Shown here piece by piece: positions 25,927 through 55,919 of a stretch of 64,000 bases of DNA (the first letter of the stretch is position 1; every line of letters starts with the position of its first letter). The position numbers and the translations under genes are program-made. Below the pieces are notes generated by a model. It was not told the origin of the DNA. It worked only from the letters and a program-made list of their open reading frames with translations, and made no database searches. Where the stretch lies: the IMG/VR virus record IMGVR_UViG_3300009285_001197, positions 1,316 through 65,315 of that record; one strand, written 5' to 3'. Source of the stretch: a virus. Lineage: Duplodnaviria > Caudoviricetes.

Positions 25927-28245
25927 ATGAAACTCTCATTCCTCTTTGCAGATATACCACTCAGTAAAACCATCTTCAAAGTTGATGGGAAGATTGACAA
26001 AAAAGCCTACCCCAATGTAAAGCTATTCACATCTGAAACAGTAATAATTTCAGATGCAGCAAGCCTCTTTGATACCATCAAAGCCCATGCTGAAGACCCA
26101 CGTGGACCATGCCTACTTTCTGGACCACTCAACCGAATCCTTAATAATGAATCTCGTGCTGGCAGCACAACCAGTCTAGGGCAACGTCAACTCATAATCC
26201 TCGACCTGGATAAAGCACAATTCAATTCTCCTGAAGAATTCATGCGCAATGCAGGATTAGAAGATGTCTCTTACACTGTTCAATACAGTGCAAGCCAAGG
26301 GCTCAGCAAAACCCTTAACTGCCACATCTTCATACTGCTCGAAAAAGCTATCCCTGCACCCCAGCTCAAAACATGGTTAATGTGGCTCAATCTTCGCAAT
26401 GATGCACTTAAAAATACACTCACATTATCTAATGCAGGCCACGCCTTGCACTATTCGGTAGACATTACTGTCTGTCAAAATGACAAACTAATCTATATCG
26501 CCACACCAAAATTCGATGGGATAAAAGACCCATGGAAAGAACCTCGCATTCAATTTGTCAAACGCACCCTAGACAAATTACCAAATAACAGACTTGCTGA
26601 ATGTGCTCTCGATGCACTCAAAGTTGATGCAAAGAAAATTCGCGACACCTTACGCAAAGCACAAGGTCTTGCCCCCATCACCTCCAAAGAAGTAATGCAA
26701 GGAGAATATCTTGTCCAAAAAGGTTCAGGACAAGTCACTATCACAGGTATGCGTGATAATGAAGATTTTCGTTATTTCAACTTGAATGGAGGAGATTCAT
26801 GGGGCTATTTTCACCCCATTAACAACTTTGAACTTCTGCACAATTTTAAAGGCGAACCTTTCCTCCTTATCAAAGAGGTCATGCCTGACTATTACACAGA
26901 ACAAATACACTTGCGTGATGAACAACACAGCACACCCCATGATCAACGTGACACCATTATGGTATTCATCAATAAACACACTGCTGAATACAAGAAACTC
27001 AAATACATCAACGGCCAGCTGGAAATCACCCCAGCCAAAAACGAAGCACAACTTACACATTTCATGCTTGAAAATCGCCTTTCAATGCCAAGATTCATAC
27101 AAGAATGGGATATGAAATTCAATCCACACAGCGAACAAATCATCAACCCCGAAGAACGTAGTATCAATACCTTCAAACCTTCCATGTACATGAACCCTGT
27201 TAACCAGGTCAAAGGTACATTCCCCAACATCAAACTTTTCTTTGAAAGTGCTGTAGGAACAGGTGATATTTACGACTATGTAATGAACTGGCTCGCGGTC
27301 ATCTTTCAACACAAAATCAAAACTCAAACTAGCCAAGTCTGGCAAGGCGTACAAGGAACAGGTAAGGGAAAAATTGTAGAACTCATTCTCAAACCTCTAT
27401 TTGGTTACCAGAATGTAACCAGTATCCTGGCCTCAGCATTGGATGAAGACTTCAATGCCATTATGGAAAATGCTCTCATTGTCTTCATTGATGAAATCGA
27501 AGCTGACATGTTCTCTAACACCAGCAAATTCGAAAGCAAGCTCAGGAAATGGATCACCGAACCTACTATAGACATTCGCCGCATGCGTACAGATGTCTAT
27601 TCAGTGCCTAGCTATATCAACCTGATTTTCGCATCAAACAAACCACGTCCCGTAGACATTCCACCTACAGACAGACGTACTAATGTAGGACAATTTCAAC
27701 GCAAACGCTTCCTACCCACAGATGCCCAGCACGATGGTGTCAAAGACGAACTCGCCGCCTTTGCATACTATCTACAACACCACACAGCAGATATTGCCTA
27801 CGCACGTAGCATCCTAGACACAGAAGATCGTCGTGAAATTCAACGTATCAGCATCAACAGCCTGGACGAACTCGCCCATGGTTTACTAGAAGGCAACTTC
27901 GAAATCATTGCCAGTGCTATGCCGGACGAACGACTCATGAACGAATCAGGTGTAATAACACCAATAGCCAGCAGCTTTATCAACATCGTGAAACGCTGCT
28001 CATTGGAAACAAAAAGCAAGCTTACTCGTGATGAACTAGCTGTAATCTTCGAACACTGCATTGGACATGTGCCTGAGGGTAAGAACAAATTTACCAGTTA
28101 TCTGAGACACCACGGGATAAACACCAAACGAATTAGTATCAATGGGGATAAAACCTATGGTATAGAAATAACCTGGAAAAAACATGACTTCAGTTATACC
28201 AAACAGCCATTAAGGGCTGTGAAAGGAACTAAAAATGCCGGATGA
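25927..28245 (+). CDS. Primase-helicase (C-terminal SF3/DUF5906-like helicase)
   Basis: Walker A QGVQGTGKG, Walker B VFIDE, LIFASNK and TDRR motifs; N-terminal LDLD..HIFI primase-like motifs. Confidence 0.8.
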   Translation: MKLSFLFADIPLSKTIFKVDGKIDKKAYPNVKLFTSETVIISDAASLFDTIKAHAEDPRGPCLLSGPLNRILNNESRAGSTTSLGQRQLIILDLDKAQFNSPEEFMRNAGLEDVSYTVQYSASQGLSKTLNCHIFILLEKAIPAPQLKTWLMWLNLRNDALKNTLTLSNAGHALHYSVDITVCQNDKLIYIATPKFDGIKDPWKEPRIQFVKRTLDKLPNNRLAECALDALKVDAKKIRDTLRKAQGLAPITSKEVMQGEYLVQKGSGQVTITGMRDNEDFRYFNLNGGDSWGYFHPINNFELLHNFKGEPFLLIKEVMPDYYTEQIHLRDEQHSTPHDQRDTIMVFINKHTAEYKKLKYINGQLEITPAKNEAQLTHFMLENRLSMPRFIQEWDMKFNPHSEQIINPEERSINTFKPSMYMNPVNQVKGTFPNIKLFFESAVGTGDIYDYVMNWLAVIFQHKIKTQTSQVWQGVQGTGKGKIVELILKPLFGYQNVTSILASALDEDFNAIMENALIVFIDEIEADMFSNTSKFESKLRKWITEPTIDIRRMRTDVYSVPSYINLIFASNKPRPVDIPPTDRRTNVGQFQRKRFLPTDAQHDGVKDELAAFAYYLQHHTADIAYARSILDTEDRREIQRISINSLDELAHGLLEGNFEIIASAMPDERLMNESGVITPIASSFINIVKRCSLETKSKLTRDELAVIFEHCIGHVPEGKNKFTSYLRHHGINTKRISINGDKTYGIEITWKKHDFSYTKQPLRAVKGTKNAG

Positions 28246-28429
28246 ATTTGACCTCAGCCAGGAACAACAAGCTGAAATGCTCACTTATCATATTGCTGAA
28301 CAAATACGCATTTACCCACCCAAACCAATCATCAACTGTTCTGACAACTGTGGGCCAAATATCCCCCATGGAAAAGAATGTACCTACTACAAGGATTGCC
28401 TGGAAGACTGGCAACTAAGGAATAAGTAA
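28235..28429 (+). CDS. Small Cys-rich protein (DksA/TraR-like, weak)
   Basis: MPDEFDLSQEQQ...CSDNC...CTYYKDCLEDW. Confidence 0.45.
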   Translation: MPDEFDLSQEQQAEMLTYHIAEQIRIYPPKPIINCSDNCGPNIPHGKECTYYKDCLEDWQLRNK

Positions 28430-28761
28430 TGAAAACATCAGAACTGATTGGCACCCAACTGGATTGGGCGGTGGCGAAATGTGAGGGGTGGAGTGCGGAA
28501 GGGTTGACGGATATTGCGAACGGCAACGTATTCCCCGAGCATGCTTTTTCATCCAACTGGGCACAAGGTGGGCCGATTATTGAGCGTGAAAGTATAAGCG
28601 TACTTGACGCTAATGGGTGCTGGGCTGCCAGATATTCATACTATGATAACTCACAGGTTAGCCGAGACTATTTTGGCCCAACACCACTAATTGCAGCCAT
28701 GCGCTGCTATGTTGCCAGCAAGCTGGGTGATGAAGTTGACGTACCGGAGGAACTCCTATGA
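28429..28761 (+). CDS. NinX/DUF2591-like protein
   Basis: KTSELIGTQLDWAVAKCEG...SSNWAQGGPIIERE...GPTPLIAAMRCYVASKLGDEV. Confidence 0.8.
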   Translation: MKTSELIGTQLDWAVAKCEGWSAEGLTDIANGNVFPEHAFSSNWAQGGPIIERESISVLDANGCWAARYSYYDNSQVSRDYFGPTPLIAAMRCYVASKLGDEVDVPEELL

Positions 28762-29450
28762 TCTCTTCAGCCAGCTACTCACGCTTACTAGACTTTGAAT
28801 CCTGTAAATTCAAGGCATTTCTCAAACACTACAAACGTATCCCTGACCCTCGCCCAAGCCCAGCTGCAGATCGTGGCACAGCAGTCCACCAAGCCTGCGA
28901 AGACTGGATGCGCGATCTACCCAATCAACCCAAACAGCCTATTGAAGCTGCCAAACACTTCAAAGCTGAGCTTAACTCTCTGAAGGAATCTTTCATAGCA
29001 GGTAAAGCTTCATTAGAAGGTGAGTGGGCATTTAACCATGACTGGAAACCCACTGAGTGGAAAACCGGCTGGTTCCGTCTTAAAGCAGATGCTGTAGTCC
29101 ACCCAAAACCTACAGAAGCCGTAGTCATCGACTACAAAACTGGCAAGCGCTTCGGTAACGAACTAAAACACGGTGAACAACTCCAGCTCTACACCTTAGC
29201 TGTCTTTCTACGTGAGCCTGAAATCAAACATGTTGTAGCTGAGCTCTGGTACTTTGACCAAGATGACTTAGCTCGTCTCGAGATCAGCCGCAAAGAAGGT
29301 TTACGTTACTTACGCCTGTTTGATAACCGTGCACGCAAAATGACCGAAGCTACAAGCTTCCCTCCAAACCCCAATGGCTTCAGTTGCAAATGGTGCCCAT
29401 ACAAACCTGAAGAACTAGGTGGCACAGGACATTGCACTAAAGGAGTCTGA
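28758..29450 (+). CDS. PD-(D/E)XK Cas4/RecB-like exonuclease
   Basis: SYSRL..FESC, RGTAVH, KADAV, VIDYKTGK, QLQLY, CKWCPY. Confidence 0.85.
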   Translation: MISSASYSRLLDFESCKFKAFLKHYKRIPDPRPSPAADRGTAVHQACEDWMRDLPNQPKQPIEAAKHFKAELNSLKESFIAGKASLEGEWAFNHDWKPTEWKTGWFRLKADAVVHPKPTEAVVIDYKTGKRFGNELKHGEQLQLYTLAVFLREPEIKHVVAELWYFDQDDLARLEISRKEGLRYLRLFDNRARKMTEATSFPPNPNGFSCKWCPYKPEELGGTGHCTKGV

Positions 29451-29452
29451 GC

Positions 29453-29638
29453 ATGAAACCAAACATAGCATCTAAATGTGAAATCTGCGGTGGACCTAAA
29501 GGTCGCTATTTCAACCATGAAAAATGCTCAAAAATCAAACAACAGCAACACACGCTAGATAAGCGACCACACAAGCAGACACTTGACACAAAACGACAGA
29601 AATATCTAAGTAAAACAGGAGAGCGTTATGATACCTAA
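29453..29638 (+). CDS. Small Zn-finger-like protein
   Basis: CEICG..HEKCSK; GGAG RBS. Confidence 0.5.
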   Translation: MKPNIASKCEICGGPKGRYFNHEKCSKIKQQQHTLDKRPHKQTLDTKRQKYLSKTGERYDT

Positions 29639-29840
29639 AAGAGTACGTCTCCAATTTCAAACCATACTCGAAGCTTCCAGAACACACAGCCTGTGTGTTA
29701 CTGAAACAACAAACCGTAAAACAGGAGCTAAAGTTTACATTCTCTGTGCCCATACAAATGAAAACCTTTACCCCTTGGCACAACTGGGAGCCATGTCTGA
29801 ACTCCATACCCCTCAACATAGCGGGAGTAAACTGATATGA
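29628..29840 (+). CDS. Hypothetical protein
   Basis: 70-aa ORF with AGGAG RBS. Confidence 0.5.
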   Translation: MIPKRVRLQFQTILEASRTHSLCVTETTNRKTGAKVYILCAHTNENLYPLAQLGAMSELHTPQHSGSKLI

Positions 29841-30047
29841 ACAAAAGAACGAACAACATTCTTATAGGTCAAGCTCTATTGGACAATATGAAAGCGTATC
29901 GCAAGAAAGTTACAGCCACGCCGGATTCTGCACGTAGTTTTCTGACCCGCCTAGGCGTCATGACACCCAACGGTAAGGTTAAGAAACTAATACAAAACTA
30001 ACTCTTGCAAAACGGAGTAAATTGATATGAACAAAAGAACGAACAAC
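29824..30047 (+). repeat. 34-bp direct repeat (29824-29857 and 30014-30047)
   Basis: GGAGTAAAyTGATATGAACAAAAGAACGAACAAC with one mismatch; covers the RBS plus the first 7 codons of two adjacent ORFs. Confidence 0.9.
29837..30001 (+). CDS. Small hypothetical protein (54 aa)
   Basis: Own translation MNKRTNNILIGQALL...FLTRLGVMTPNGKVKKLIQN; GGAG RBS. Confidence 0.55.
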   Translation: MNKRTNNILIGQALLDNMKAYRKKVTATPDSARSFLTRLGVMTPNGKVKKLIQN

Positions 30048-30167
30048 CTTATGCGTATTTGGGTAAACGCAGGAATTTCAGCTGCTAAATTTAACAAAGC
30101 CCACGCCGTTTCACTTTTGACTGATCTCGGCGTACCTGAATCAGTGATCCAAAGGACGCTACCATGA
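30027..30167 (+). CDS. Small hypothetical protein (46 aa)
   Basis: Own translation MNKRTNNLMRIWVNAG...VIQRTLP; GGAG RBS. Confidence 0.5.
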   Translation: MNKRTNNLMRIWVNAGISAAKFNKAHAVSLLTDLGVPESVIQRTLP

Positions 30168-30245
30168 AGCTAACTTCATATGGAACTTTCTGGATGGTGT
30201 ACTTCATTTTCTTCCTATTTGCAGCCTATTTCTTTGTCGCATAAA

Positions 30246-30674
30246 ATGAACATTCTTAAATTTATACCATTAGTACAAGAACTAGCGCTACTGTCAAAAG
30301 ACCCAAGTACAAAAGTAGGTTGCGCAATATTCGGACCAGGTATGGAAATTAGAGCTACAGGATGGAATGGGTTCCCACGAGGGGTTAATGACACCGAAGA
30401 AAGACTCAATGACAGACCTACGAAATATAAATTCATCACCCATGCAGAGGCGAATGCAATCGCTAATGCGGCGCGTTCTGGCGTCGCCCTCGAAGGATGC
30501 TCTCTGCTTGTTACTGCGTTGCACCCGTGCAACGATTGTGCCAAGCTGCTCATTCAGTCTGGCATCAAAAAAGTGTATGCACCATTGCCCGAAATCGACG
30601 GGCGCTGGGCAGACAGTTTCGAAGTTGCCGCCACAATGTTCCGCGAAGCAGGAGTGGAGGTAGAGTTTTACTAA
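30246..30674 (+). CDS. dCMP deaminase
   Basis: SKDPSTKVGC, GWNGFPRG, HAEANAI, PCNDCAKLLIQSGI. Confidence 0.92.
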   Translation: MNILKFIPLVQELALLSKDPSTKVGCAIFGPGMEIRATGWNGFPRGVNDTEERLNDRPTKYKFITHAEANAIANAARSGVALEGCSLLVTALHPCNDCAKLLIQSGIKKVYAPLPEIDGRWADSFEVAATMFREAGVEVEFY

Positions 30675-30913
30675 ATAAGGAGAAAGTTTCTGTGAATATT
30701 ATTCTCGAACTTATCGAAGGAATTGCTAATGGTGGACACACAAGCCTTATCCTCCCGAAAGGATTGATGCAGAATGAAAGCTGCTTAAAGTGCGCATACG
30801 GCGGGGAAAACTTAACTGTCAATTTCTGCAAACGCCCACTAGATCAGAAATGTCATAAGGCTATACCCGACGTCGCTTTAACCAGCTATTGAGTAGATAT
30901 AAGTGATGTCCGA

Positions 30914-30971
30914 GTGGAACGCAGAAATAACCGGCGACTGAAAGCCGTCCGCGTTGATTGCCGGGTTAGCA
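30914..30971 (-). repeat. attC-like site A
   Basis: Minus strand: TGCTAAC-CCGGC-AATCAACGCGGACGGC...GTCGCCGGTTATT-TCTGC-GTTCCAC. Confidence 0.7.
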
Positions 30972-30993
30972 CACAACAAAAAAGGAGCAAAAA

Positions 30994-31173
30994 ATGAAAA
31001 TAGAAATCAGGCTCAACGAAGAAACCGAGGAGAAAGAACTGTATCTTTTTGGTGATTTTCAGGCTTCGTGGAATATACTGGTAGATGACAGTAAGGTAAT
31101 TATTCCTTACGCGATAGATGCGGCTATAAAGATCGGAGAAGATTGGACGCCAAGCGGCGTCCCTCTTGAATGA
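30994..31173 (+). CDS. Cassette ORF, hypothetical (59 aa)
   Basis: AAGGAG RBS; own translation MKIEIRLNEETEEKELYLFG...PSGVPLE. Confidence 0.55.
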   Translation: MKIEIRLNEETEEKELYLFGDFQASWNILVDDSKVIIPYAIDAAIKIGEDWTPSGVPLE

Positions 31174-31197
31174 CGGGTTGGGCAACGAAAGGATACT

Positions 31198-31482
31198 ATG
31201 AAACGCGAACTTAATGACACAGAAAAACGTGTAATAGATGCTGCAAAAACACTTGAAAAAGACAAGTGGCGCGGTACGTGGGGAGCAACATCTATCCAGA
31301 TTCTCGGCTGGCCCGATTCTGGTAAAGCCTACATGGCAAAAGAGCTTGGAATTTCTGCCGCAATAGCCGAGTTGCGAAGGCGCGGAATTGTGATTATGCA
31401 TCATCGGCATGGGTACAGGCTGGCAGTGCCCAACGTAAAATTAACCAGCGGTGCGCACGCCGCACCCGAAACGGAGAAATGA
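31198..31482 (+). CDS. Cassette ORF, winged-HTH-like
   Basis: AAAGGA RBS; ISAAIAELRRRGIVIMHHRHGYRL resembles a wHTH. Bounded by GTTGGGCA (31177) and TGCCCAAC (31427). Confidence 0.6.
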   Translation: MKRELNDTEKRVIDAAKTLEKDKWRGTWGATSIQILGWPDSGKAYMAKELGISAAIAELRRRGIVIMHHRHGYRLAVPNVKLTSGAHAAPETEK

Positions 31483-31632
31483 ACATGAACGCTACCGAAA
31501 GACTAAGGCAGTACATCGGGTCGGAAGAAAGATTAAGAAGGACGGTACGCCTGGGGCAGTAATTTATGAGATATTGGCTAGTTACAATAAAAATCCGGTA
31601 AAGGTCGTGAATTAGACTGGAGGAGATAGAAC

Positions 31633-31923
31633 ATGAGCATAAGGAAAATTTTTGAGGATTGGTACTTTGGCGAGAACCATACAGGTAAAGCAAGGGAGCG
31701 TAGCGAGAATGGAGGGTACAGATACATCGCCGCCGAAGCTGCGTGGAATACGTGGCAAACAGCAACAAAAGCAGAGCGCGAGGCGTGCGCAAGGCTATTC
31801 GAGGACGCTGACGGCGTGGTGCACGAGCGCACCGCTGCGAACTGGCGCGACCCTGCGCGGGCCATTCGGATGCGATCTAACGTAAAGGTAAGGGGTCGCC
31901 CGCTTTTGGGCGATCCCTCTTGA
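31633..31923 (+). CDS. Cassette ORF, hypothetical phage protein
   Basis: GGAGGAG RBS; FEDWY..AAWNTWQ..AEREACA motifs; reads through attC D. Confidence 0.65.
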   Translation: MSIRKIFEDWYFGENHTGKARERSENGGYRYIAAEAAWNTWQTATKAEREACARLFEDADGVVHERTAANWRDPARAIRMRSNVKVRGRPLLGDPS

Positions 31924-31937
31924 CCGCAGGGTTGGGC
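31875..31937 (-). repeat. attC-like site D
   Basis: Minus strand: GCCCAAC-CCTGC-GGTCAAGAGGGATCGCCC-AAAAGC-GGGCGACCCCTTACC-TTTAC-GTTAGAT, with the extra C in L''. Confidence 0.85.
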
Positions 31938-31958
31938 GGTTTTAACTGGAGAAGAGAA

Positions 31959-32261
31959 ATGAGCGAAACAGCAAAATGTGCAATTTGTGGCGAGCCAATG
32001 CCGCCAGGCGAGGAAATGTTCAAGTACCACGGATACAGTGGGGATTGCCCAAAGCCACCAATGCCGAAACCTCCGGCAAAGCAGAAAATACCGGGATTGA
32101 TTGCCGCTGCCGCATACGCGGACAACAAGAGCGTATCAATGCTCTTCGATACCTCAGAACAGGCGCACGCTTTCGTTGCTGGCATAGAGGCTGATGTGGC
32201 GCCCAACGTGGATTTCAGCGGCTCGACGCCGCTTTATGGCGGCGAGTCCGCTGGAAAGTAG
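31959..32261 (+). CDS. Cassette ORF with CxxC...H..C motif
   Basis: GGAG RBS; MSETAKCAICGEPMPPGEEMFKYHGYSGDCPKPP. Confidence 0.65.
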   Translation: MSETAKCAICGEPMPPGEEMFKYHGYSGDCPKPPMPKPPAKQKIPGLIAAAAYADNKSVSMLFDTSEQAHAFVAGIEADVAPNVDFSGSTPLYGGESAGK

Positions 32262-32269
32262 GGTTCGGC
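32201..32269 (-). repeat. attC-like site E
   Basis: Minus strand: GCCGAAC-CCTAC-TTTCCAGCGGACTCGCCGCC...GCGGCGTCGAGCCGCTGAAA-TCCAC-GTTGGGC. Confidence 0.85.
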
Positions 32270-32305
32270 GTCTTATCGGAGCCGACTTTTGAGAAAGGGA
32301 ACGCA

Positions 32306-32635
32306 ATGGAAAAACTAGACATGAAGCACCGACCGAGCGCCGAGTATCGCTACTGGCTGTACGACCCCGAAGGCGACGGAATGGTGTACTTCCGCACGCA
32401 AACGGAGCGCGACAAACAAGCTGCGAGGGCGATTGATGCGTACCTCGATGACGGGTGGGCGGACGAGGTTGAACTCGTGGCAGCCGGAGAGTTGACGCAC
32501 TTTGCGCAGGTGCTTGATAAGCAGATGCGGCCAGCGGACGAAGACCTCGACGAAGACTGGTACGACGGCGAATGCACCGCGTGGCCCGAAGGCATGGACT
32601 GGGGCGAGAGCGGAAGCGGACGAAGGCCGCTGTAG
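32306..32635 (+). CDS. Cassette ORF, acidic hypothetical protein
   Basis: AAAGGGA RBS; YWLYDPEGDG...LDDGWADEV. Confidence 0.65.
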   Translation: MEKLDMKHRPSAEYRYWLYDPEGDGMVYFRTQTERDKQAARAIDAYLDDGWADEVELVAAGELTHFAQVLDKQMRPADEDLDEDWYDGECTAWPEGMDWGESGSGRRPL

Positions 32636-32687
32636 ATAATCGCCTGGAGCGTAGGGTTGGGCGGCGACGCCCGGAAAGGACAAAGAT

Positions 32688-33299
32688 ATGAAGTTTGATG
32701 ACATGAACCCGATGCAGCGACGGTTGCACAACGTGGCATGCGTATTGGACGCGGATGGTGACGAGTACGGTTTTGTTCCGCTGTTGCTGGAAACGATCGA
32801 AGCGCTCGCAACAGCACCTCTAAAAGAGTTCACGCCTGTCGAGTTCCTGCTGGATGGCGCACGACTGAAGCTGTCGTTTCGGCAGGAAGAATGCGAGTCA
32901 TGCGGAGCGTCGAGTGCGCACTTCCACACGGCGCCAATGGATCAGTACGCCGAAGAACTGCGAGGCTTGTGGGTGGCGCTGGTGCCGGCAGAAAACGACA
33001 GGCATTTGAAGATGAAGATTCCGACGCCGACTTTTGGAGACAAAGACATGACCTGCCACACAAAAGAACAACTTGAAGAAATGCTGTTTGACGTGGTGAA
33101 TGAACTCGACCTGTCGGACTTGATGATCGAAGAGCACGGCCCGCTTGGAACGCCACCGGCAACACTGGTGCGGCTTGTGCTTGAGCGCAAGGATTTGGAG
33201 ATTCGCATGCTCAAACAGGGCTTCGTTGCCGTGACGCCGAACGCCAGCGTGAGCGGCGCGGAGCCGCAGGCGGAGCGTCCGACTCGACGCAACAGTTAG
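32688..33299 (+). CDS. Cassette ORF, hypothetical (possibly two fused ORFs)
   Basis: AAAGGA RBS; internal GGAG..ATG at 33048; ends inside attC G. Confidence 0.65.
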   Translation: MKFDDMNPMQRRLHNVACVLDADGDEYGFVPLLLETIEALATAPLKEFTPVEFLLDGARLKLSFRQEECESCGASSAHFHTAPMDQYAEELRGLWVALVPAENDRHLKMKIPTPTFGDKDMTCHTKEQLEEMLFDVVNELDLSDLMIEEHGPLGTPPATLVRLVLERKDLEIRMLKQGFVAVTPNASVSGAEPQAERPTRRNS

Positions 33300-33301
33300 A
33301 C
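33236..33301 (-). repeat. attC-like site G
   Basis: Minus strand: GTCTAAC-TGTTG-CGTCGAGTCGGACGCTCCG...CGCGCCGCTCACG-CTGGC-GTTCGGC. Confidence 0.82.
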
Positions 33302-33313
33302 ATCGGAGGAAAA

Positions 33314-33496
33314 ATGAAAGTCACATGCGAACTTAATATTGGTAACGACCAAGAGCATCCGGGGGTCAAGATTCTGTTTGAGGGAGAACCAACGGAAAAG
33401 CGCGGATTCATCCACCTACGGATAGGTGATGTTCAGTATGAGTTACGGCCATCAGAAGTGGCAGCGGCATTGCAAAGGGTGCGTAGCGATGCCTAA
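33314..33496 (+). CDS. Cassette ORF, hypothetical (60 aa)
   Basis: GGAG RBS; its stop TAA lies within the GCCTAAC core. Confidence 0.65.
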   Translation: MKVTCELNIGNDQEHPGVKILFEGEPTEKRGFIHLRIGDVQYELRPSEVAAALQRVRSDA

Positions 33497-33580
33497 CGTA
33501 GAGCTAAGGGGCGCGAGCGATGACGCAACAACGAAGTGAAACCGGCTGTTCGAGCGTCCCATTTGAGCGCCTTGTTATGC
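33491..33580 (-). repeat. attC-like site H (90 bp)
   Basis: Minus strand: GCATAAC-AAGGC-GCTCAAATGGGACGCTCG...CGCGCCCCTTAGC-TCTAC-GTTAGGC. Confidence 0.85.
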
Positions 33581-33909
33581 CTGCTGGGGCCGTTGCGCTG
33601 CGGCCAGTGCGTTTTTTGCCTGGCGACGGACTGCGCTACTACACGGCCACAACATTTCCGCGCGACCGGCGTGCAGGATGTGACATGTATTACCGCAGAT
33701 GCCGCGCCTTCGGCGGCGTGGAAGGCGAGCAAGCAGGAATTTGCGACGTGCTGGACGCGAGCGGTGATGTGGTGGCCGACTTCCCGCTTACTGCGCATGG
33801 CCTGGACTACCTGTACCGCGCACTTGGGTGTCGGGTAGATGGGCATAACGTTCAAATTGAGGCGCGGCGCGCTGTTGCGCCGTCGCTCTCGAATGCAGGG
33901 TTAGGCTGA
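33577..33909 (+). CDS. Cassette ORF, hypothetical
   Basis: Open frame between attC H and I; start uncertain (33520 or 33577). Confidence 0.45.
   Translation: MPAGAVALRPVRFLPGDGLRYYTATTFPRDRRAGCDMYYRRCRAFGGVEGEQAGICDVLDASGDVVADFPLTAHGLDYLYRALGCRVDGHNVQIEARRAVAPSLSNAGLG
33843..33906 (-). repeat. attC-like site I
   Basis: Minus strand: GCCTAAC-CCTGC-ATTCGAGAGCGACGGCGC...GCGCCGCGCCTCAAT-TTGAAC-GTTATGC. Confidence 0.85.
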
Positions 33910-33927
33910 ACTTTTAAGGAGATCAGG

Positions 33928-34113
33928 ATGAAATTTAATGAAACGCTGATTTATAGGGTACTAAGTATTCCTGGAAATGAATGGGAAAAAAGTTGCGGAT
34001 ATGTGTTTGCATTAAAAATTCCAGTCCTGATTGTGATGATGCTTGTCGGAGTTCCGACTGCAATTGTGATTGATTTTTTCTACGCAGCATTGAAAGTTGA
34101 CGGTGATGCCTAA
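33928..34113 (+). CDS. Cassette ORF, small membrane protein
   Basis: AAGGAG RBS; hydrophobic segment; stop TAA within the GCCTAAC core at 34108-34114. Confidence 0.6.
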   Translation: MKFNETLIYRVLSIPGNEWEKSCGYVFALKIPVLIVMMLVGVPTAIVIDFFYAALKVDGDA

Positions 34114-34172
34114 CGTGAAATAGACAACATACCGTGCAACGAAAGCAGGCATAAAACAAGGAGTAACGCGCC

Positions 34173-34364
34173 ATGCCATCATTGAAATCCGATATTTTCA
34201 TCATAGTGAAAGCAGGTGACAAATCGTTTTCAATCGGTGGCGTTCTGCTTCCTGATGGCCGCTATGCCATCAAACGCGGACGATCCTGGGCGAAGAAGAT
34301 CAGAACGACAACATTGAGCGAGATATTTACAGAAGCCCGCAAATGGGTGGTGATAAACAAATGA
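34173..34364 (+). CDS. Small basic hypothetical protein
   Basis: AAGGAG RBS; 63 aa. Confidence 0.55.
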   Translation: MPSLKSDIFIIVKAGDKSFSIGGVLLPDGRYAIKRGRSWAKKIRTTTLSEIFTEARKWVVINK

Positions 34365-34593
34365 GAAACACTTTTCCCGCGTCGATTAACGCAACTCAAC
34401 AGGAGCGTGAAATCATGAGGTTTGGACGCCAAGCGGGTGCTGACGGGTAAGCCGTCACCTAATTCAAAAATCAATATGACAACTCTAACAAAATCTGAAA
34501 GAATGATCGACCAATTGCGTCAGAGGTTAAGCACAGCACGCACTAAGGAAATCATTCTTCTCAATCAAATCATACAACTCAAGGAAGAGATTC

Positions 34594-35958
34594 ATGAGCA
34601 CTACCTCAACTGCCATGGCTCATCAGAAACAAAGCCTGAAGAAACTGGAAAAGACCCCACTAGCATTTGACACCAGCGACCCAGGTACTGGCAAAACTTT
34701 CGTACAAATCATGGATTTTGCTAAACGCCGTCGTAAACAAGGTGGCAAAGCTCTAATCATTGCACCCAAATCTTTACTTGAAAGCGCCTGGAAAGAAGAC
34801 TTTCAAAAGTTCGCACCGGACATAGCAGTAGTCTGTGCTTATGCAGAGAATCGTGCAGAAGCATTCAAAATGCCAGCCGACGGAGTCATCACTAACACAG
34901 ACGCCCTCCTCTGGCTGAGTAAGCAACCCAAAAAATTCTTCAAGGATTTCGACACCCTAGTTATTGATGAATCAACCAGCGTAAAGCACAAGACCAGTGG
35001 TCGCAGTAAAGCAGCCGCCAAGATCAGCAAATACTTTAAGTACCGCCGCCTAATGACAGGAACACCAACCAGTAACGGTATCACTGACATCTGGCACCAA
35101 GTATTCATTCTCGATGAAGGTGCCCGTTTGGGCAAAAGCTTCTTTAGTTTCCGTGCAGCCGCCTGCACACCTCAACAGGTTGGGCCAGGTCCTAAAATGA
35201 TTAAATGGACAGATCGCCCAGGCATTGAAGGAATCATTGGTGTATTGCTCAAAGACATCGTGATTCGTCACAAGTTTGAAGACTGTGTAGACATCCCTGA
35301 GAACCACCGTTACTCAGTGCCCTACACTCTGAAGAAATCTCACAGAGCAAATTACTCTGAGATGGAAAAAGAACAGCTCCTCCTTCTGAAAGACACTATC
35401 ATCACAGCAGTCAACGGAGGTGTTGTCTACACCAAGCTTCTACAAATCGCATCTGGAGCTGTTTATGACGGAGAAGGTAACTACACGCTTCTGGATACCG
35501 GTCGGTACGAACTCGTTCTTGATCTTGTGGAAGCCCGTCAACATTCTATTGTATTCTTCAACTGGCAACATCAGAGAGATTTGCTGGTTGCCGAAGCAGA
35601 GAAGCGCGGCCTAAGCTTTGCTACTTACGACGGAGAAACCAACAAGAATGACCGAAAACAGATCGTTACTGACTTCCAGGCTGGCAAGTACAACGTACTC
35701 TTTGCCCACCCACAGAGTGCTGGCCATGGTCTCACATTGACCAAGGGTACAGCGACGATATGGGCCTCACCCACCTACAACCTGGAACACTTCGCCCAAG
35801 GCTGGAAGCGCGTGCACCGCATCGGTCAGACGCAAAAGACTGAAACCATCGTAGTGGTAGCTAAAGATACTGTAGATGAAAAAGTATGGGCCGTGCTCAA
35901 TGAAAAAGATGGCAAAATGAGCGCCCTGCTAAATGAATTAAAAGAACTGATGAAATGA
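34594..35958 (+). CDS. SNF2-family (SF2) helicase
   Basis: DPGTGKT, VIDES, MTGTP, SAGHGLTL, QGWKRVHRIGQ. Confidence 0.9.
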   Translation: MSTTSTAMAHQKQSLKKLEKTPLAFDTSDPGTGKTFVQIMDFAKRRRKQGGKALIIAPKSLLESAWKEDFQKFAPDIAVVCAYAENRAEAFKMPADGVITNTDALLWLSKQPKKFFKDFDTLVIDESTSVKHKTSGRSKAAAKISKYFKYRRLMTGTPTSNGITDIWHQVFILDEGARLGKSFFSFRAAACTPQQVGPGPKMIKWTDRPGIEGIIGVLLKDIVIRHKFEDCVDIPENHRYSVPYTLKKSHRANYSEMEKEQLLLLKDTIITAVNGGVVYTKLLQIASGAVYDGEGNYTLLDTGRYELVLDLVEARQHSIVFFNWQHQRDLLVAEAEKRGLSFATYDGETNKNDRKQIVTDFQAGKYNVLFAHPQSAGHGLTLTKGTATIWASPTYNLEHFAQGWKRVHRIGQTQKTETIVVVAKDTVDEKVWAVLNEKDGKMSALLNELKELMK

Positions 35959-36152
35959 AACACCACTTGCTACTTATCTGGTTATTCATGGTTCTATATT
36001 ATGGATTCTTCTTAACCTATAGCACATGGGATACACAACTAGAAATCATCTTGATGGTCACAGTGCCCTTTTTACTAGGTTACCGCACATGCAAAAACAA
36101 CACATCATCTTCGACATCGAAATCATCGGAGACCAGAAACCAGTCTTCCTAG
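35955..36152 (+). CDS. Small membrane protein
   Basis: Two hydrophobic segments; ATGA coupling to the helicase. Confidence 0.4.
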   Translation: MKHHLLLIWLFMVLYYGFFLTYSTWDTQLEIILMVTVPFLLGYRTCKNNTSSSTSKSSETRNQSS

Positions 36153-37990
36153 TCTGCACCAAGAACGTAGAAACAAAGGAAACACAAGCCTTCTGGATGC
36201 ACAAACGCGGACACATGAAAAAACTGGAAGCAATGCTTCCTGAGTATACATGGGTCAGTTTCAACGGAATCAATTTCGATGCACCACTAATTTGTGCGGC
36301 CATTGCTGGGGCTGACGAACTCTGGCTCAAAGATGTCGCCAACCAAATCATTGAACAGCAAATGCGTTCATGGCAGACCTACCGCGAATTCAAAATTGAA
36401 TTCATTGACTTTGATCACATCGACCTGATTGAAACTGCGCCAGGTGTGATGATCTCACTTAAGACATACGCAGGACGAATGGGTCACCCCACTATGGTAG
36501 ATATGCCCTTCCCTCACGACCTAGACCTGAAGCTTTCGCAACACAAACAATTAGAGAATTACTGTCTAAATGACCTAAGCGTCACAGAGGCGTTGTTCAA
36601 AAAACTATCAAAGGAAATCCAACTTCGCAAAGAATTAGGGGCTAAGTACGGAATTGATCTGCGCAGCAAATCAGATGCCCAGGCAGCAGAAGCCATCATG
36701 AAACAAGAACTAAGAATTGGAAAAGTTCAGAAAGACACTCCAAAGCTTATCAGTTACAAAGCACCTGACATTATCAGACCCAAAACCAAAGCAATCAAAG
36801 ACCTGGTTGCTAAATTTGAAAACACATACTTCAAGATCAACCATGCCAATGGTTCACCCATTGCCCCAGACTGGATGGAAGAAGAATTCAAACTGGGCAA
36901 AGGCACCTACACCATAGGAATTGGTGGCTTGCACAGTACACATGATCGGAACCTGCACGTCCAAGCCTCTGACACACTCTTGATCAGCGACTTTGACGTA
37001 GCCAGTTACTACCCTAATATCATGATGAAGTGTGGATTGATACCACGTCTTCCAGGCGACCTGGGACTGCAATTCCTTGAAACCTACAAAGAGATTTACG
37101 AACAGCGTCTGGAAGCCAAACACTCTGGGGACAAAACCGTAGCAGATACACTTAAGATTGTTCTGAACGGAAGCTATGGCAAGCTAGGCAGCATCTACTC
37201 TGTATTCTACTCACCAGACATGATGCTTGGAGTGGCCATCACAGGACAGCTCAACCTGCTAATCCTGATTGACAAGCTCGAACGCATCAAAGGCGTAACC
37301 GTCTATTCAGCCAACACGGACGGCATCACCGTAGGGCATAGCCCAGAAGCCCGTGAGGCAGTGCTCAAGGTATTCTCAGACAATGTAAAAATCACCGGCT
37401 TTGAGTACGAGGAAACACCTTACAAACTCATCGCTATGAAAGACGTGAACAACTATATTGCTATTACCACATCGGGTAAGGCCAAGCGTAAAGGCCTGTA
37501 CGCCAAGTCCGGTGTACATGAAATGAAGAACCCAACAATGGAAGTCTGCTCAAACATGGCCACAGACTACTTGCAATTTGGTAAATTACACATTGAGAAT
37601 TACGACGATATAAAAGATTTCGTCGCAGTACGCAATGTCAAAGGTGGAGGAGTCCAACACCTTCGTACAGAATTGCGTGACGACTGGGTGGAAACTTCAG
37701 ATCGGGTTTGGCAGGCCAATGGAAAAACAGTCAAACGCAAGTCTCGCCCAGCACCCTACGAAATCGGTGTAGGGGGAACACCTTTCGGTCGCGTGGCCAG
37801 ATGGTACATGGCAACAAAAAAACTGCCTGCTATCACTTATGTAGAAAGTGGCAATCAGGTCCCAAAAACCGAAGGGGCCAAGCTCTGCATGACCTTGCTC
37901 GATAAATTACCAAATGATCTGGACTATGACTGGTACATCAGGGAAACAATTTCAATGCTCAAGGATATGGGCGTCACCTATTCAAAGTAG
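36089..37990 (+). CDS. DNA polymerase, family B-like, with 3'-5' exonuclease domain
   Basis: Exonuclease motifs FDIE, FNGINFD, YCLND; polymerase motifs DFDVASYYPNI, KIVLNGSYGK, SANTDG. Confidence 0.9.
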   Translation: MQKQHIIFDIEIIGDQKPVFLVCTKNVETKETQAFWMHKRGHMKKLEAMLPEYTWVSFNGINFDAPLICAAIAGADELWLKDVANQIIEQQMRSWQTYREFKIEFIDFDHIDLIETAPGVMISLKTYAGRMGHPTMVDMPFPHDLDLKLSQHKQLENYCLNDLSVTEALFKKLSKEIQLRKELGAKYGIDLRSKSDAQAAEAIMKQELRIGKVQKDTPKLISYKAPDIIRPKTKAIKDLVAKFENTYFKINHANGSPIAPDWMEEEFKLGKGTYTIGIGGLHSTHDRNLHVQASDTLLISDFDVASYYPNIMMKCGLIPRLPGDLGLQFLETYKEIYEQRLEAKHSGDKTVADTLKIVLNGSYGKLGSIYSVFYSPDMMLGVAITGQLNLLILIDKLERIKGVTVYSANTDGITVGHSPEAREAVLKVFSDNVKITGFEYEETPYKLIAMKDVNNYIAITTSGKAKRKGLYAKSGVHEMKNPTMEVCSNMATDYLQFGKLHIENYDDIKDFVAVRNVKGGGVQHLRTELRDDWVETSDRVWQANGKTVKRKSRPAPYEIGVGGTPFGRVARWYMATKKLPAITYVESGNQVPKTEGAKLCMTLLDKLPNDLDYDWYIRETISMLKDMGVTYSK

Positions 37991-38076
37991 CACCAGCATC
38001 ACGTCTATTGAGACAACGCTTCGGGGACGTAAAAGGCAAACGCGTTGTACTTTGAATCTTTTAACCGAGGAATTTT

Positions 38077-46049: not shown

Positions 46050-46327
46050 TCCGCTTTATCACTGTCAAAAAAGCCGCAGAATTCACAGGCTACACAGAGG
46101 CGGCAATCAAGACTAAAATACGCGATTTCGTCTGGCTCGAAAATGAAGTCTGGATTCGAGCCCCAGACGGTCGCGTATTGATTTCCATCGAGGGATATAA
46201 CTCATGGGCAGAGTCTACAGTACCGGCGTCGAAGCCTTCTCGGCAACGACGATCCGTATCACCTTCACCTATCAGGGCATCCGTTGCCGCGAAGCACTCA
46301 AGCTTGAGCCCACTCCCGCTAATCTAA
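46046..46327 (+). CDS. xis: Excisionase
   Basis: ITVKKAAEFTGYTEAAIKTKIRDFVWLENEVWIRAPDGRVLISIEGYNSW; directly upstream of and overlapping int. Confidence 0.8.
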   Translation: MIRFITVKKAAEFTGYTEAAIKTKIRDFVWLENEVWIRAPDGRVLISIEGYNSWAESTVPASKPSRQRRSVSPSPIRASVAAKHSSLSPLPLI

Positions 46328-47382
46328 AGCGAGCGGCGAATCACCGGGCAGTCATCCTCGACGCTATCGAAAAAGGCACGTTTGACTACGCAGTCACCTT
46401 TCCGAACAGCAAGCGAGTACCCCAGTTCAGTAACAAAACAGTTAGCGACCTGTCTTTTGCTAAGCACCTCGACCAGTGGTTGAAAAGTAGGTCAAAACAA
46501 CTCAAAGCCAGCACCCTGCACGCCTATAGAAAGTTGGTCAACCGTATCCCAGAATCACTAGGCAGCATCCCGCTCCAAAGCCTGAAACGCGCAGACATTC
46601 GCGCGTGGCTGGAAACACTCAGCGCAGGTAATCAGTACCTGGCCAACCTGCAAAGTGTGCTGCGGAGTTCACTGCACGACGCTGCTGAAGACGGGTTGCT
46701 ACAGACGAACCCAATGCAGGGATGGGTGTATCGCGTGAGGGATGTCATCAAGGAAGACAGTGACATCCTACCCTTCACCGCCATAGAGCAAGCTGTCATT
46801 CTGGCCCAGCTTACGGGTCAGAGCCTGAACCTTGTCCAGTTTGCCTTCTGGACAGGTTTACGGACCTCCGAACTCGCAGGGCTCGACTGGGGTGACATCG
46901 ACTGGCTACGAGGTATTGTCCGCATACGCAGAGTCAAAACACAAGTGTCAGACCAACCCGAGCCGCCCAAGAATCGCGGAAGCATCCGTGACGTCAAACT
47001 TCTCCCCCTTGCCCTCGAAGCCCTGATACGACAGAAACAGTACACCTACGTGGCAGGTAAGGAAGTATTCCAAGACCCACTCCACCTGGCTCGCTGGAAA
47101 GGGGACTTCCCTATCCGCACCAACCTGTGGAAACCTGCCTTACGTCGCGCAGGGGTGCTCTACCGTCGCCCATACCAGACACGCCACACCTACGCCAGCA
47201 TGATGCTCACCGCAGGCGAAGACCCTATGTGGGTCGCTCAACAGATGGGTCACAGCGACTGGGGTATGATTCGTAAGGTCTATGGAAAATGGATCACAGA
47301 AGATCGCCCGGATGCCGGGGCAAAAGCTGTCGCCATGTTTTCAAACATAAAGGGGGTTAAAAATGCTGCTCACAAAGAATGA
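46204..47382 (+). CDS. int: Tyrosine integrase with N-terminal arm-binding (DUF3596-like) domain
   Basis: IRITFTYQGIRCRE..YAVTFPNS; TGLRTSE, RPYQTRHTYAS, QQMGHSD..YG. Confidence 0.93.
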   Translation: MGRVYSTGVEAFSATTIRITFTYQGIRCREALKLEPTPANLKRAANHRAVILDAIEKGTFDYAVTFPNSKRVPQFSNKTVSDLSFAKHLDQWLKSRSKQLKASTLHAYRKLVNRIPESLGSIPLQSLKRADIRAWLETLSAGNQYLANLQSVLRSSLHDAAEDGLLQTNPMQGWVYRVRDVIKEDSDILPFTAIEQAVILAQLTGQSLNLVQFAFWTGLRTSELAGLDWGDIDWLRGIVRIRRVKTQVSDQPEPPKNRGSIRDVKLLPLALEALIRQKQYTYVAGKEVFQDPLHLARWKGDFPIRTNLWKPALRRAGVLYRRPYQTRHTYASMMLTAGEDPMWVAQQMGHSDWGMIRKVYGKWITEDRPDAGAKAVAMFSNIKGVKNAAHKE

Positions 47383-47982: not shown

Positions 47983-50900
47983 CTATGACCCCCAGTTCAT
48001 ACCTTTCAAAGCCATCTGCAAAGGCCCGACAGCTACCGCATCCTTCACTGTCTCACCAAACGGCTGGGTAGTAGCATCTGCTACCTGTTCTGCCATCGGC
48101 CCGAGAATACCTGACGGTCCATACTCTGCCGCGTCAACACCCATTTGCCCCACGCCCAGCAAACCAGCACGCTGCACGCCGTGTACCACCACCCCACCCA
48201 AAGATTCGTGGGTCCAGGCCGGAGCGCCCGCCCCCATCGCTTCCTGCAGCAGACCTTTTGCTGCGTCGGCAGCCAGCATCGTCGGGACGAAGCCTGCCAT
48301 GAGAATCATCAGCGGGTCAGTGTTGCCATTCTTCACCTCCACCTGCACACGTTTTAACAAGACAGCCTGGGCTGCGTACATAAACTGTTTGAGATGATAG
48401 AACGTCGCGTAGTGTGGGTCGCTCGACATGCTTGGTCGGATTGCAGCATTCGGACGCATGATGGCACCGTCCACCCACAACATGATGGCACGCTGTATCT
48501 GTGGACTTTCGATGTTCAAGGAACCATCCTCGCCAATCTTCACATCGTCGCGGCTGATCGTCAGCTCTTTCCAGTAGCGCTCGGAGTGCTCGTTGGGCTT
48601 CTCATAGTGACGCTTGATGAAGCTGATGGCCGCCTGTGTGGCTTGCACGCGCATGGCCTTGTTGAAAGACTCCATACCGTTCCAGCGGAAGAAGCTGTCG
48701 TTCCAGTTCCGCGCCCACTCGGGCAGGTACTGGGAACCATACAGGCTGCCGATGGTATTCATGAAGCCAGCACTGTCTACCGTACCGATCATCTCAGCCA
48801 CTCGCGTGGCCTCGTCGATATCACCAGGCTTCGCTTCGCGTAGACCGGTCAAAGCACCCCAGTTGCGCACCACGTCCCTCATACCACGCTTGAAAGCTTC
48901 GTAAGCGTCCTTCATTTCACCACCACGGACCATGATACCAAGCGGGTCGATGAAGTTTGCGAACAGGGAGTAGCCCAGCAGGCGAGTATTCGTATAGACG
49001 ATGGAGAAAGCGTTGGCCTTGCGTAGCAGCGGGCTGATGTCGGCACCGAGCGTACCTTCCATGGCCATGACTGCCTTACGCGCCGGTTCGAGTTTCTTCG
49101 TTGCGGCAGTGAGAATTTCCTTGCTTTCAACATCTTCACCCGCAAGTTTGCCAAGCTCATCCTGCCATGCAGCGACGTTGGTGGCTTTCGCCTTGGCTAC
49201 CGCACCTTCAACCTTGTACTTGTCCTTCATGATCTTGTCGATCTCGAATTCCCACGCTTCTTCCATGGCAGTCTGCAACACATCACCATCTGGGCCAAAG
49301 CGGTGACTGTACTCAGCACGCTTGGTAGCCTGGCCCACGTAGCTAGAGATGATCCGAGCCATGTCCTTCTGCTGGAACTCGTGAAACACACTCTGGTCAA
49401 TCCAGTGCAGCGTACGCTGGTTCACAGACTTCATCACTGGTGAGAAGCCCAGGGCGTTTTCGTTCTCTTGAAAATCCACCTGACCGTTAGCAGAAATGAT
49501 GCGGTTCATGATTGCCACAGCAACGTCGTCGGCAGTGACAGGCTTCGTGTCAGCTGTATCCAGCTTCGTCCAGCTGGCTGTGTACTTCCCAGCGTGCCCA
49601 CCCTTCGATACTTCATCGTTGGCCTGCTTGGCCACAGCTCCCAGCTCCTTGGCGTGGTGCTCGTGAAGCATCTTGATGAATTTTCCACTGTCGCTGATGA
49701 TCTTCGCCGCGTCCCACGACACCGGGAAGTAGCCCTTGATCTTGGCGATAGGAACCCACTTCTTGCTCTCTGCGTCGAAGCGCTGCACACCACGCTCACT
49801 GAGGTAGGTGTGCATCTTCTCGAACACATCCTTGGTGTTGTCGTAGATTCCCCTGACGACGGGGTCAACTGGGCGCTCACCTTTCTGCAGGTAGTCCAAC
49901 GCCATGCCCACGTCGGCTTTCGTACCGTTACGGAACACCGTGGAGAACTTATTCATCCACATGTTCTCGGCCTGGATGTGCGCGGCGATGTAGCCAATGT
50001 CTGCGTTCTGCGAGCCGGTCTTGTTGTTCATCAGTTGACCGATGCGAATCAGCGCAGGGTTCCCGCTTTCCACCAGCGCATTCTCAGCGAAGCCACCCCA
50101 CACCGCCACGTTGTCGAGCACCGGCTTCATCACCGTGCCGACTTTACGGATGTACTTCCCACGCGCTGCCTGGGTATCCAGTACACGGGCCATCGCGCTG
50201 CGGTTGGACATGTTGCCCCGGTCGAACTCCATCATGATTTCCAGCGCTTGCTTGTCAGCCGTCATCAGGCCGAAGACCTTGCGCACCATGTTAATGAGCT
50301 TGCGGAAGATCGTCTCGGTCTGTGGGCCGACGGTGAGCTTCCCCGCTGCCCAGAGCTGGTACATGTAGGCTACGCGCTCGGCAGGGTCTTTCTTCAGATC
50401 AGCCAGCACACCCGGCTCGTGCTGGAAGTGACGCTCCAGCGCACGGATGATCAGCTCGCTGTCGGCAGCCTGCTGCAGCACACCAGCTGCGTGGCCACGG
50501 TCATCATCCAGCAGGCGCTGGAAGAACTCGTGCATGGACTCGTGGTAAGCCATGGAGAGCGGGTCCAGCGCCTCAGTGGCTATACGGATGATGGCTTTGC
50601 CAGTCTTCGGATCACGCGACCAGGTAGCAGAGCCGCCTATGGTCTTGGTCGAGGCGAAGGCTGCATCGACCTCCTTGCCTATGCGCTTGTAGATGGCTTC
50701 GATGGCATCGACGTTCTTGGCGTTGTCGCCTTCGCGGCCTACGGCTTCGCGGTTGAAGCTGACGTAGTTGGTTTCGATGCGGCTATCGTCGTAGATGACA
50801 TAGTTCGGATGCTCATCGTTCCTACCATGGGCGGAAGCGTACTTATGGCCCATGATACCGAGGGACTGAAGGTAGTCTGAGGCTTTGGCTTGGGAGCCGA

Positions 50901-55845: not shown

Positions 55846-55919
55846 GGTGGTAGTCCTATCTGTCAGAGTTTGTTGGAGTTGATTACGAAAGTAAGTGCGC
55901 AGCTTTAGCTGCACAGTAC

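Follow-up and report, generated by a model that had tools for sequence, protein, structure and literature searches.

An integron-type cassette array without an integron integrase in a temperate phage, its genes most likely on the bottom strand of the attC sites

Is a run of small genes and palindromic repeats in a phage genome a true array of integron cassettes and, if so, what could move the cassettes and which way do their genes face? These questions are raised by positions 30914–34172 of a 64,000-nt stretch of DNA (the window), which comprises bases 1316–65315 of the 65,315-nt virus record IMGVR_UViG_3300009285_001197. An earlier reading of the letters alone, the first-pass annotation, had proposed that the two ends of each unit are complementary to each other, the footprint of excision and integration as circles. 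The whole virus record has a CheckV completeness of 100, and PHROG searches identified genes for a portal, major head protein, large terminase, primase, exonuclease, dCMP deaminase, helicase, DNA polymerase and integrase. Based on these hallmark genes, including the integrase, the record is a temperate tailed phage, complete at ~65 kb. The array lies on the + strand in the replication module, between the deaminase gene (30246–30674) on one side and the helicase (34594–35958) and DNA polymerase genes on the other.

By definition, an attC site is an imperfect palindrome of 57–141 nt bounded by 5'-RYYYAAC...GTTRRRY-3' boxes, with an unpaired spacer of 5–6 nt, paired L arms, extrahelical G16 and T23/24 on one arm and a 6-bp span from the first to the last bulge (PMC3053210, PMC5027507). 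Sites were called with our own rule-based scanner in place of a curated covariance model (IntegronFinder/HattCI). The scanner looks for AAC, a spacer of 5–6 nt, nine arm positions paired to a 3' arm with bulges at 16 and 23/24, a 5-nt spacer and GTT. It found six complete sites of 58–90 nt, all on the + strand, all inside 30914–33906 and each with 9/9 arm pairs; shuffled windows gave 2.9 hits per 64 kb at a looser threshold (8/9 pairs). All six have the spacer, the paired arms and the extrahelical G16 and T23/24, with bulge patterns of G/T/T, G/-/T, G/A/T, G/A/T, G/T/T and G/C/T, and they are imperfect palindromes bounded by boxes of the expected form. AAC and GTT are constant throughout, and variable box positions deviate in some sites (GTGGAAC, GCCGAAC, GTTCGGC, GTTATGC, GTTAGCA). 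Minimum-energy folds of single sites had z-scores of −3.3 to +0.8, as the bulges and spacers defeat plain folding, and a MAFFT alignment of five sites was not true to the structure. Together with four half-sites, the six complete sites make up the array at 30914–34172 (Table 1). A cluster of attCs that has no integron integrase (CALIN) consists of at least two close sites with no intI gene nearby; with six complete sites within 3 kb and no such gene, the locus is a CALIN.

No protein in the 65,315-nt record exceeded the cut-off of 265 for the integron integrase (IntI) profile TIGR02249 (best score 18.6 bits, 32.8 for the full protein). Neither an attI site nor a Pc promoter is recognisable at the array, and the locus is therefore not a complete integron. 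Relatives of the sites were sought with a 24-nt degenerate pattern made from three 3' arms, for which the chance expectation was estimated at <1 hit. The pattern matched at least 120 stretches of the bacterial genome collection and 18 viral-contig stretches (loci are given L numbers below). The titles of the matched records are overwhelmingly betaproteobacterial (Gallionella, Sideroxydans, Nitrosomonadales, Thiobacillus, Rhodocyclales, Burkholderiales). A true IntI is encoded in all five array-bearing bacterial genomes tested (476–503 bits vs the cut-off of 265), and in two of these intI adjoins the array in the canonical divergent layout, with open reading frames (ORFs) opposite the bottom-like strand. 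Judged by its sequence, the attC type of the phage is that of betaproteobacterial chromosomal integrons encoding IntI, in agreement with the earlier view that these are real integron-type units.

Complementary cassette ends are a textbook feature of integrons. The ten motifs from which the first-pass annotation argued all lie where it had placed them, and its five pairs hold; a sixth pair, between 32263 and 33233–33242, had been missed. In a full matrix of unit starts (GTT...) against unit ends (...AAC), the best partner of each start is the next downstream end, with a tie for the start at 33900, which pairs over 7 nt with the end at 33497 and equally with that at 34114. The two boxes of one attC share complementary runs of only 3–4 nt. 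Scored over the 8 variable positions beyond GTT, the within-unit assignment reaches 35/48, a value attained by one of the 720 permutations, the observed one (permutation mean 24.8). Same-attC partners score 2, 5, 4, 4, 4 and 0 of 8. The ends therefore pair better within the unit than with their attC partners, as had been claimed. That claim had also been staked on homologous arrays, in which within-unit pairing should exceed shuffled pairing. It does so in both sets: bacterial arrays score 5.52/8 within units (n = 126 intervals), 3.62 within the same attC (n = 229) and 3.54 at random, and viral arrays 4.54/8 (n = 28), 3.38 (n = 47) and 3.46, respectively. When units are circularised in silico, as the annotation had suggested, the reconstituted site, with the half-box of its own unit, has a lower folding energy in 5/5 cases. 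Thus, we conclude that the end complementarity is real and well beyond chance, and that the genes are flanked by complementary boxes as cassettes are. End complementarity and attC clusters in phages are already known, and the main value of the observation is to confirm these as real cassettes.

The orientation of the genes relative to the attC sites is a separate matter. The bottom strand of an attC site reads 5'-RYYYAAC...GTTRRRY-3', is purine-rich and is cleaved between A and C, with the extrahelical bases (G16, optionally 20, and T23/24) on the arm that faces its AAC triplet (PMC5027507). In the window, the 3' arm of the + strand carries the bulges in 6/6 sites and the + strand of the array is G-rich (GC skew +0.14 to +0.21), which identifies the + strand as the bottom strand. 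This strand call is validated by two integrons adjacent to intI, in which it gives the canonical result, and it is also canonical in the published phage CALIN of TJE1. The genes of the array are on the + strand as well, based on nine + strand ORFs with correctly spaced Shine-Dalgarno (SD) sites and on the codon profile. Purines occupy codon position 1 at 0.64 in + ORFs, with a dip in GC content at position 2 as in known phage genes, vs 0.43 and a flat profile in − ORFs. The array genes thus most likely sit on the recombinogenic bottom strand, the reverse of bacterial arrays. Four of the six window sites are callable, all on the bottom-strand side and none opposite; a gene on the attC top strand, a trait typical of cassettes if not strictly defining, is not what we see here.

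Three independent tests compared bacterial and viral arrays of one attC family, 'same strand' denoting genes on the bottom-like strand. Based on the longest ORF, bacterial arrays gave 81 opposite, 4 same and 41 ambiguous calls (n = 126) and viral arrays 14 same, 2 opposite and 17 ambiguous (n = 33). Based on an SD site, a start codon and an ORF of at least 40 codons after GTTRRRY, 45 bacterial sites had the gene on the top side, 7 on the bottom side and 154 on neither (23 locus-edge sites skipped), whereas 26 viral sites had it on the bottom side, 0 on the top side and 26 on neither (3 skipped). Based on codon signature, with L158 left out as a duplicate of L148, the counts were 60 top, 22 bottom and 44 ambiguous in bacteria, and 19 bottom, 0 top and 8 ambiguous in viruses. 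Fisher tests of bacterial against viral polarity gave P values of 1e-8 to 1e-14. Counted by locus, the viral set has 14 bottom-side and 0 top-side cases out of 18; among the bacterial loci (at least 120, of which 120 were scored), 29 are top-side, 4 bottom-side and 87 tied or without a call. The viral loci share no DNA beyond attC-length matches, one pair excepted, and phage hallmark genes are present in several of them. In loci retrieved through their protein homology with two array genes, c4 and c9, and hence independently of the DNA pattern, 20/20 attCs are on the gene strand. A literature search of titles and abstracts, without the supplements of PMC9892861, found no report of inverted polarity in phage arrays. 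The inverted polarity looks new and was seen in one attC family only. Its reasons are a matter of conjecture: a convention set by the founder of a phage cassette pool, insulation against the host Pc, or a strand-exposure bias from replication or transcription.

Two loci (L158 and L165) have two attC clusters each, of opposite polarity, and genes follow the local polarity wherever it is callable. Five contigs from 'bacterial' metagenome-assembled genomes (MAGs; L030, L077, L106, L124 and L128) have the phage-type polarity, with a homolog of c9 in L030 and of the array gene c3 in L077. These five may be phage or prophage DNA binned into MAGs.

How might such units move? The reading we favour, with a probability of about 0.7, is an integrase-less cassette array in a temperate phage, in which the + strand is the bottom strand, a host IntI acts and the terminal half-site is attI-like. 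In the published mechanism, IntI cleaves the folded bottom strand at the A|C step in the box on the arm opposite the bulges (PMC5027507). Here the bottom strand would be the + strand, which is also the coding strand, and the crossover would fall at AA|C of the left box. The mobile unit would then be C + attC body + GTTRRRY + SD + ORF + RYYYAA, that is, an attC and the ORF after it, and excision between two neighbouring left boxes would release a circle in which the boxes flanking the gene pair. The first-pass annotation had argued that R''/R' complementarity is restored only in the circular cassette. This interpretation stands, except for the exchanged half-box: the position of the bulges points to the RYYYAA of the left box as most likely, rather than the TTRRRY of the right. 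The recombinase would presumably be the IntI of a betaproteobacterial host, acting while the phage DNA is inside the cell, and the conserved terminal half-site would serve as a fixed junction for cassette exchange, in the manner of attI.

The strongest competitor, which we nevertheless regard as unlikely, is the canonical layout, in which the + strand is the top strand, each ORF forms a unit with the attC that follows, and exchange takes place at G|TT of the right box. Both layouts predict end complementarity alike, so it cannot tell them apart, and circularisation under the canonical layout improves the energy at 4/4 sites, an equally good fit. The attCs are 3' of genes as in ordinary integrons, and five ORFs end in the following attC. 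Against this layout stand the placement of G16 and T23/24 on the + 3' arm at every site, the G-rich + strand, and the fact that the same strand call comes out canonical beside bacterial intI genes and in TJE1. The end of the array bears on it further. Homologs of c9, the small gene after the last box, were found in one MAG contig (L030), five viral contigs and 14 metagenome contigs, nine of the 14 being redundant with the earlier groups. In 11/11 loci with enough upstream DNA, an RYYY-AAC box is placed 61–62 nt 5' of the c9 start codon, followed by GTG(A/T)(A/G)(A/G)TAG(A/G)C without a 3' arm, and arrays of gene-strand attCs lie upstream of this junction. Two phage backbones, L208 and L211, are identical over 400/400 nt rightwards from AAC and unrelated leftwards (35/130); identical backbones are thus joined to different last cassettes exactly at the box. 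An array that ends in a bare left box, with exchange at that point, favours the layout in which the + strand is the bottom strand, whereas under the canonical layout the last cassette would need to have lost its attC body at an identical point in each contig. The terminal half-site resembles attI in position only; the conserved half-site and the adjoining c9 look new.

Units of the array also recur in other contexts with their own ends, as real cassettes should according to the first-pass annotation. In L188 (83% identity) c4 lies between the same two boxes as the two-gene unit of the window. Homologs of c4 follow an attC in L190 and L191 (68% protein identity), and the boxes around the L190 homolog differ from those of the window yet pair 8/8, which reads as a compensatory change. 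At L208/L211 the last cassette is replaced at the box. For c3 we found 13 homologous viral loci, with an attC near none of them. The homolog in L175 is an ordinary phage gene with a TATAAT promoter in front of it, and its homology to the window is confined to 31949–32196, between the two boxes; c3 is thus a phage gene framed by a complementary box pair. This hints at an origin of new cassettes, in which an ordinary phage gene comes to lie between complementary boxes.

Several observations weigh against the reading we favour. No circular or deletion junctions at attCs were found among the assembled contigs mapped to the locus. The 24 loci related to the phage by helicase homology have neither an IntI nor an attC array. 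The three sites of TJE1 scan as canonical, and inversion is thus not general to phages; the SD-ORF call is absent at 26 of 52 viral sites, and the pattern-fetched loci all belong to one attC family and are not a random sample. Five ORFs extend 42–60 nt beyond the proposed crossover into the next attC, and their tails would change on moving. The attCs upstream of the c4 homologs show no special similarity to attC e (ranks 113, 102 and 286 of 308, with 113 for L188), whereas compared with attC f the site downstream of c4 in L188 has rank 17–19 of 308, a weak pointer to the canonical layout. Neither this comparison nor box linkage decided between the layouts; without pattern-selected sites, the linkage was null (2.38 vs 2.38 of 4). 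An apparent tendency of the right box to travel with the attC body (3.16 vs 1.95 of 4) was rejected as an artefact, since the search pattern fixes the right box.

In one contig from the probable source sample, 31204 is followed directly by 31879, with 674 nt left out and 30 nt on the shorter side of the joint, which may be an assembly path through repeats. The small shares seen in other groundwater runs represent the same phage at low depth and stray attC copies.

Recombination by the phage's own tyrosine integrase in place of a host IntI, with the site before c9 as part of the phage attachment region, has in our judgement a smaller chance than the canonical layout. In L197 (4362–5519) and L199 (4268–5389) a tyrosine integrase of the same PHROG family as that of the window follows directly 3' of c9, and the sharp break in homology beside an integrase gene resembles a phage-host junction. 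The window integrase, however, lies 12 kb from c9, and all three proteins score 30–34 bits against the IntI cut-off of 265 and are not IntI-like. The sites themselves have the full anatomy recognised by IntI and occur in genomes that encode it, and the attCs in the DNA left of the junction have the phage polarity, not that of the host.

Marginally less probable again is an en bloc capture, through illegitimate recombination, of part of a host chromosomal integron that would now persist as an inert passenger. The GC content of 50–58% at 31–34 kb vs 44–47% in both flanks would fit a captured piece, as would the decay of 4 of the 10 sites to halves and the fact that 30675–34372 is an indel relative to the array-less related phage locus L004. 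On the other hand, bacterial arrays of this attC family have the opposite gene polarity, homologs of c3, c4 and c9 occur in other viral contigs, and the junction between array and c9 is conserved across unrelated phage contigs, with replacement of cassettes. No pair of empty and filled sites was obtained among the 24 helicase-homology relatives, and a megablast search with 28000–38000 returned no match in the phage collection. That the hairpins are immobile RNA-level elements (intercistronic stabilisers or terminators) resembling attC is very improbable: they do occupy intercistronic positions on the transcribed strand, RNA folding is better for the bottom-strand sequence and upstream ORFs are translated through them, but such elements give no reason for box complementarity across genes, 200–1000 nt apart, or for the compensatory boxes of L190, no T-run follows the hairpins, and the site family fills integrons that bear IntI.

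CALINs have been described in phages, with 17 among 10,705 genomes, and IntI1 recombines phage-borne attCs (Qi et al. 2023, PMC9892861). The window locus resembles the CALINs reported there in its attC clusters and small ORFs of unknown function in a phage genome without an integron integrase. It differs in its longer array, with six complete and four half-sites, and in having genes on the attC bottom strand, unlike TJE1, which is one of the phages of that study. Sections 3 and 3.4 of PMC9892861 make no mention of a conserved terminal half-site or an adjoining small gene. Compared with sedentary betaproteobacterial integrons (L084, L131 and the IntI loci L168 and L166), the attC family, the anatomy and the within-unit complementarity are alike; those integrons have an IntI beside the array and genes on the top strand, whereas in the phage array IntI is lacking and the genes are on the bottom strand. 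Inverted cassettes, with the ORF on the attC bottom strand, do occur in chromosomal integrons, for example Vibrio toxin-antitoxin cassettes; they are a minority and have their own promoters. In the bacterial set, bottom-side genes account for 7 of 52 callable sites, vs 26/26 in the viral arrays. Insertion of cassettes outside integrons at attG sites has been described as an origin of CALINs and of single attC sites lacking an integron integrase (SALINs) (bioRxiv 10.1101/2022.09.11.507474). In a phage without attI, such insertion might let the IntI of the host introduce cassettes. The attG sites of that report are scattered, whereas here many unrelated phage contigs share one conserved junction and a uniform gene orientation.

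A broader scenario, which we put forward tentatively and hold to be possible but doubtful, is that betaproteobacterial phages keep their own cassette pool on an integrase-less platform, consisting of the attI-like half-site and c9, and borrow the IntI of the host, the mirrored polarity insulating expression. If so, phage cassettes taken up by a host integron would be in antisense orientation to Pc, as would host cassettes taken up by the phage with respect to phage transcription, and the two pools would share one recombinase yet stay insulated in expression. Phages would then be users of host integrases with a cassette convention of their own, beyond occasional carriers of integron debris, with a bearing on the spread of cassettes between cells and on the source of new ones.

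Table 1 Positions in the window of the attC sites, complementary unit ends, ORFs and integrase
Feature	Position	Strand	Description	Basis or remark
attC a	30914..30971	+	complete; left box GTGGAAC, right box GTTAGCA; bulges G, C, T on 3' arm	9/9 pairs
half-site b	31140..31183	+	3' arm with bulged G16/T20 and right box GTTGGGC (31177); without 5' arm and left box	
half-site c	31428..31490	+	left box GCCCAAC and 5' arm; without 3' arm and right box	aligned to long attCs of L149, L165
attC d	31875..31937	+	complete; bulged G16, T20, T24 on 3' arm	scanner
attC e	32201..32269	+	complete; bulged G16 and T23, 6-bp stem between	scanner, fold
half-site x	32620..32662	+	3'-arm remnant and right box GTTGGGC (32656), inside two-gene unit 32263–33242	
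attC f	33236..33301	+	complete; bulged G16, A20, T24	scanner
attC g	33491..33580	+	complete, 90 nt; bulged G16, A20, T24	scanner
attC h	33843..33906	+	complete; bulged G16, T20, T24	scanner
terminal half-site	34108..34172	+	box GCCTAAC, then GTGAAATAGAC; without 3' arm	kept beside c9 in other contigs
unit ends	31177 / 31427		GTTGGGCA / TGCCCAAC	perfect run 8 nt
unit ends	31931 / 32200		GTTGGGCG / CGCCCAAC	perfect run 8 nt
unit ends	32263 / 33233–33242		GTTCGGCGTC / GACGCCGAAC; spans two ORFs and internal half-site	perfect over 10 nt
unit ends	33295 / 33487		GTTAGACATCG / CGATGCCTAAC	10/11, perfect run 5 nt
unit ends	33574 / 33842		GTTATGCC / GGCATAAC	perfect run 8 nt
unit ends	33900 / 34108		GTTAGGC / GCCTAAC	perfect run 7 nt
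c0	30994..31173	+	59 aa	with SD site
c1	31198..31482	+	94 aa; runs through left box at 31428	
c2	31633..31923	+	96 aa	
c3	31959..32261	+	100 aa; Cys-rich N-terminus	
c4	32306..32635	+	109 aa	
c5	32688..33299	+	203 aa; C-terminal ~60 aa is a domain common in metagenomic proteins	75 matches
c6	33314..33496	+	60 aa; stop TAA within left box GCCTAAC	
c7	33520..33909	+	up to 129 aa; frame opens within attC g	start uncertain
c8	33928..34113	+	61 aa, hydrophobic; stop TAA within last box GCCTAAC	
c9	34173..34364	+	conserved 63-aa gene	always 3' of arrays
tyrosine integrase	46204..47382	+	phage's only one	not an integron integrase

Individual sites of the array have close counterparts elsewhere. Near-identical copies of attC a occur in L157 and L197, attC d is 95–96% identical to sites in L152 and L163, and attC h is 98.5% identical to a site in L159. 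Half-site c is the 5' half of an attC type of ~122 nt found in other viral contigs. This type recurs in viral loci L148, L149, L158, L161, L162, L163 and L165, and its variable loop contains an SD site and an ATG.

None of the ten array ORFs has a Pfam match, and PHROG gave one marginal match. The small cassette genes plausibly have counter-defence or host-takeover functions; no gene could be named. Within c5, an internal ATG that has its own SD site opens the C-terminal ~60 aa, and the 75 metagenomic proteins that match this part vary in length and are 45–88% identical. The gene may be a fusion or encode two overlapping products. For c9 there was no match in Pfam or PHROG and no sequence match in the PDB, and Atlas matches score at most 0.84. 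Its predicted structure has a mean predicted local distance difference test (pLDDT) score of 74.7, with a best Foldseek E-value of 0.39. An assignment of c9 to an arm-type DNA-binding fold found no support and was dropped.

Five ORFs cross a left box (31428–31434, 31875–31881, 32201–32207, 33236–33242 and 33843–33849), all in the same frame, in which AAC encodes Asn. The tails of the box-crossing ORFs read ..PNV.., ..SNV.., ..PNA.. and ..HNV... At the terminal site, the conserved TAG halts ORFs that enter in the AAC frame, as in L208.

Beyond the array, a backbone element at 34380–34450 is shared with the array-less L004 (14732–14799). Similar sequences within the array are the 3' arm of attC a (CCGCGTTGATT) and the 5' part of half-site b (TGGACGCCAAGCGG), and the element may be the scar of an older attC or a recombination boundary. 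Further downstream, an ORF of 2643 aa on the − strand (47983–55914) adjoins the phage integrase gene.

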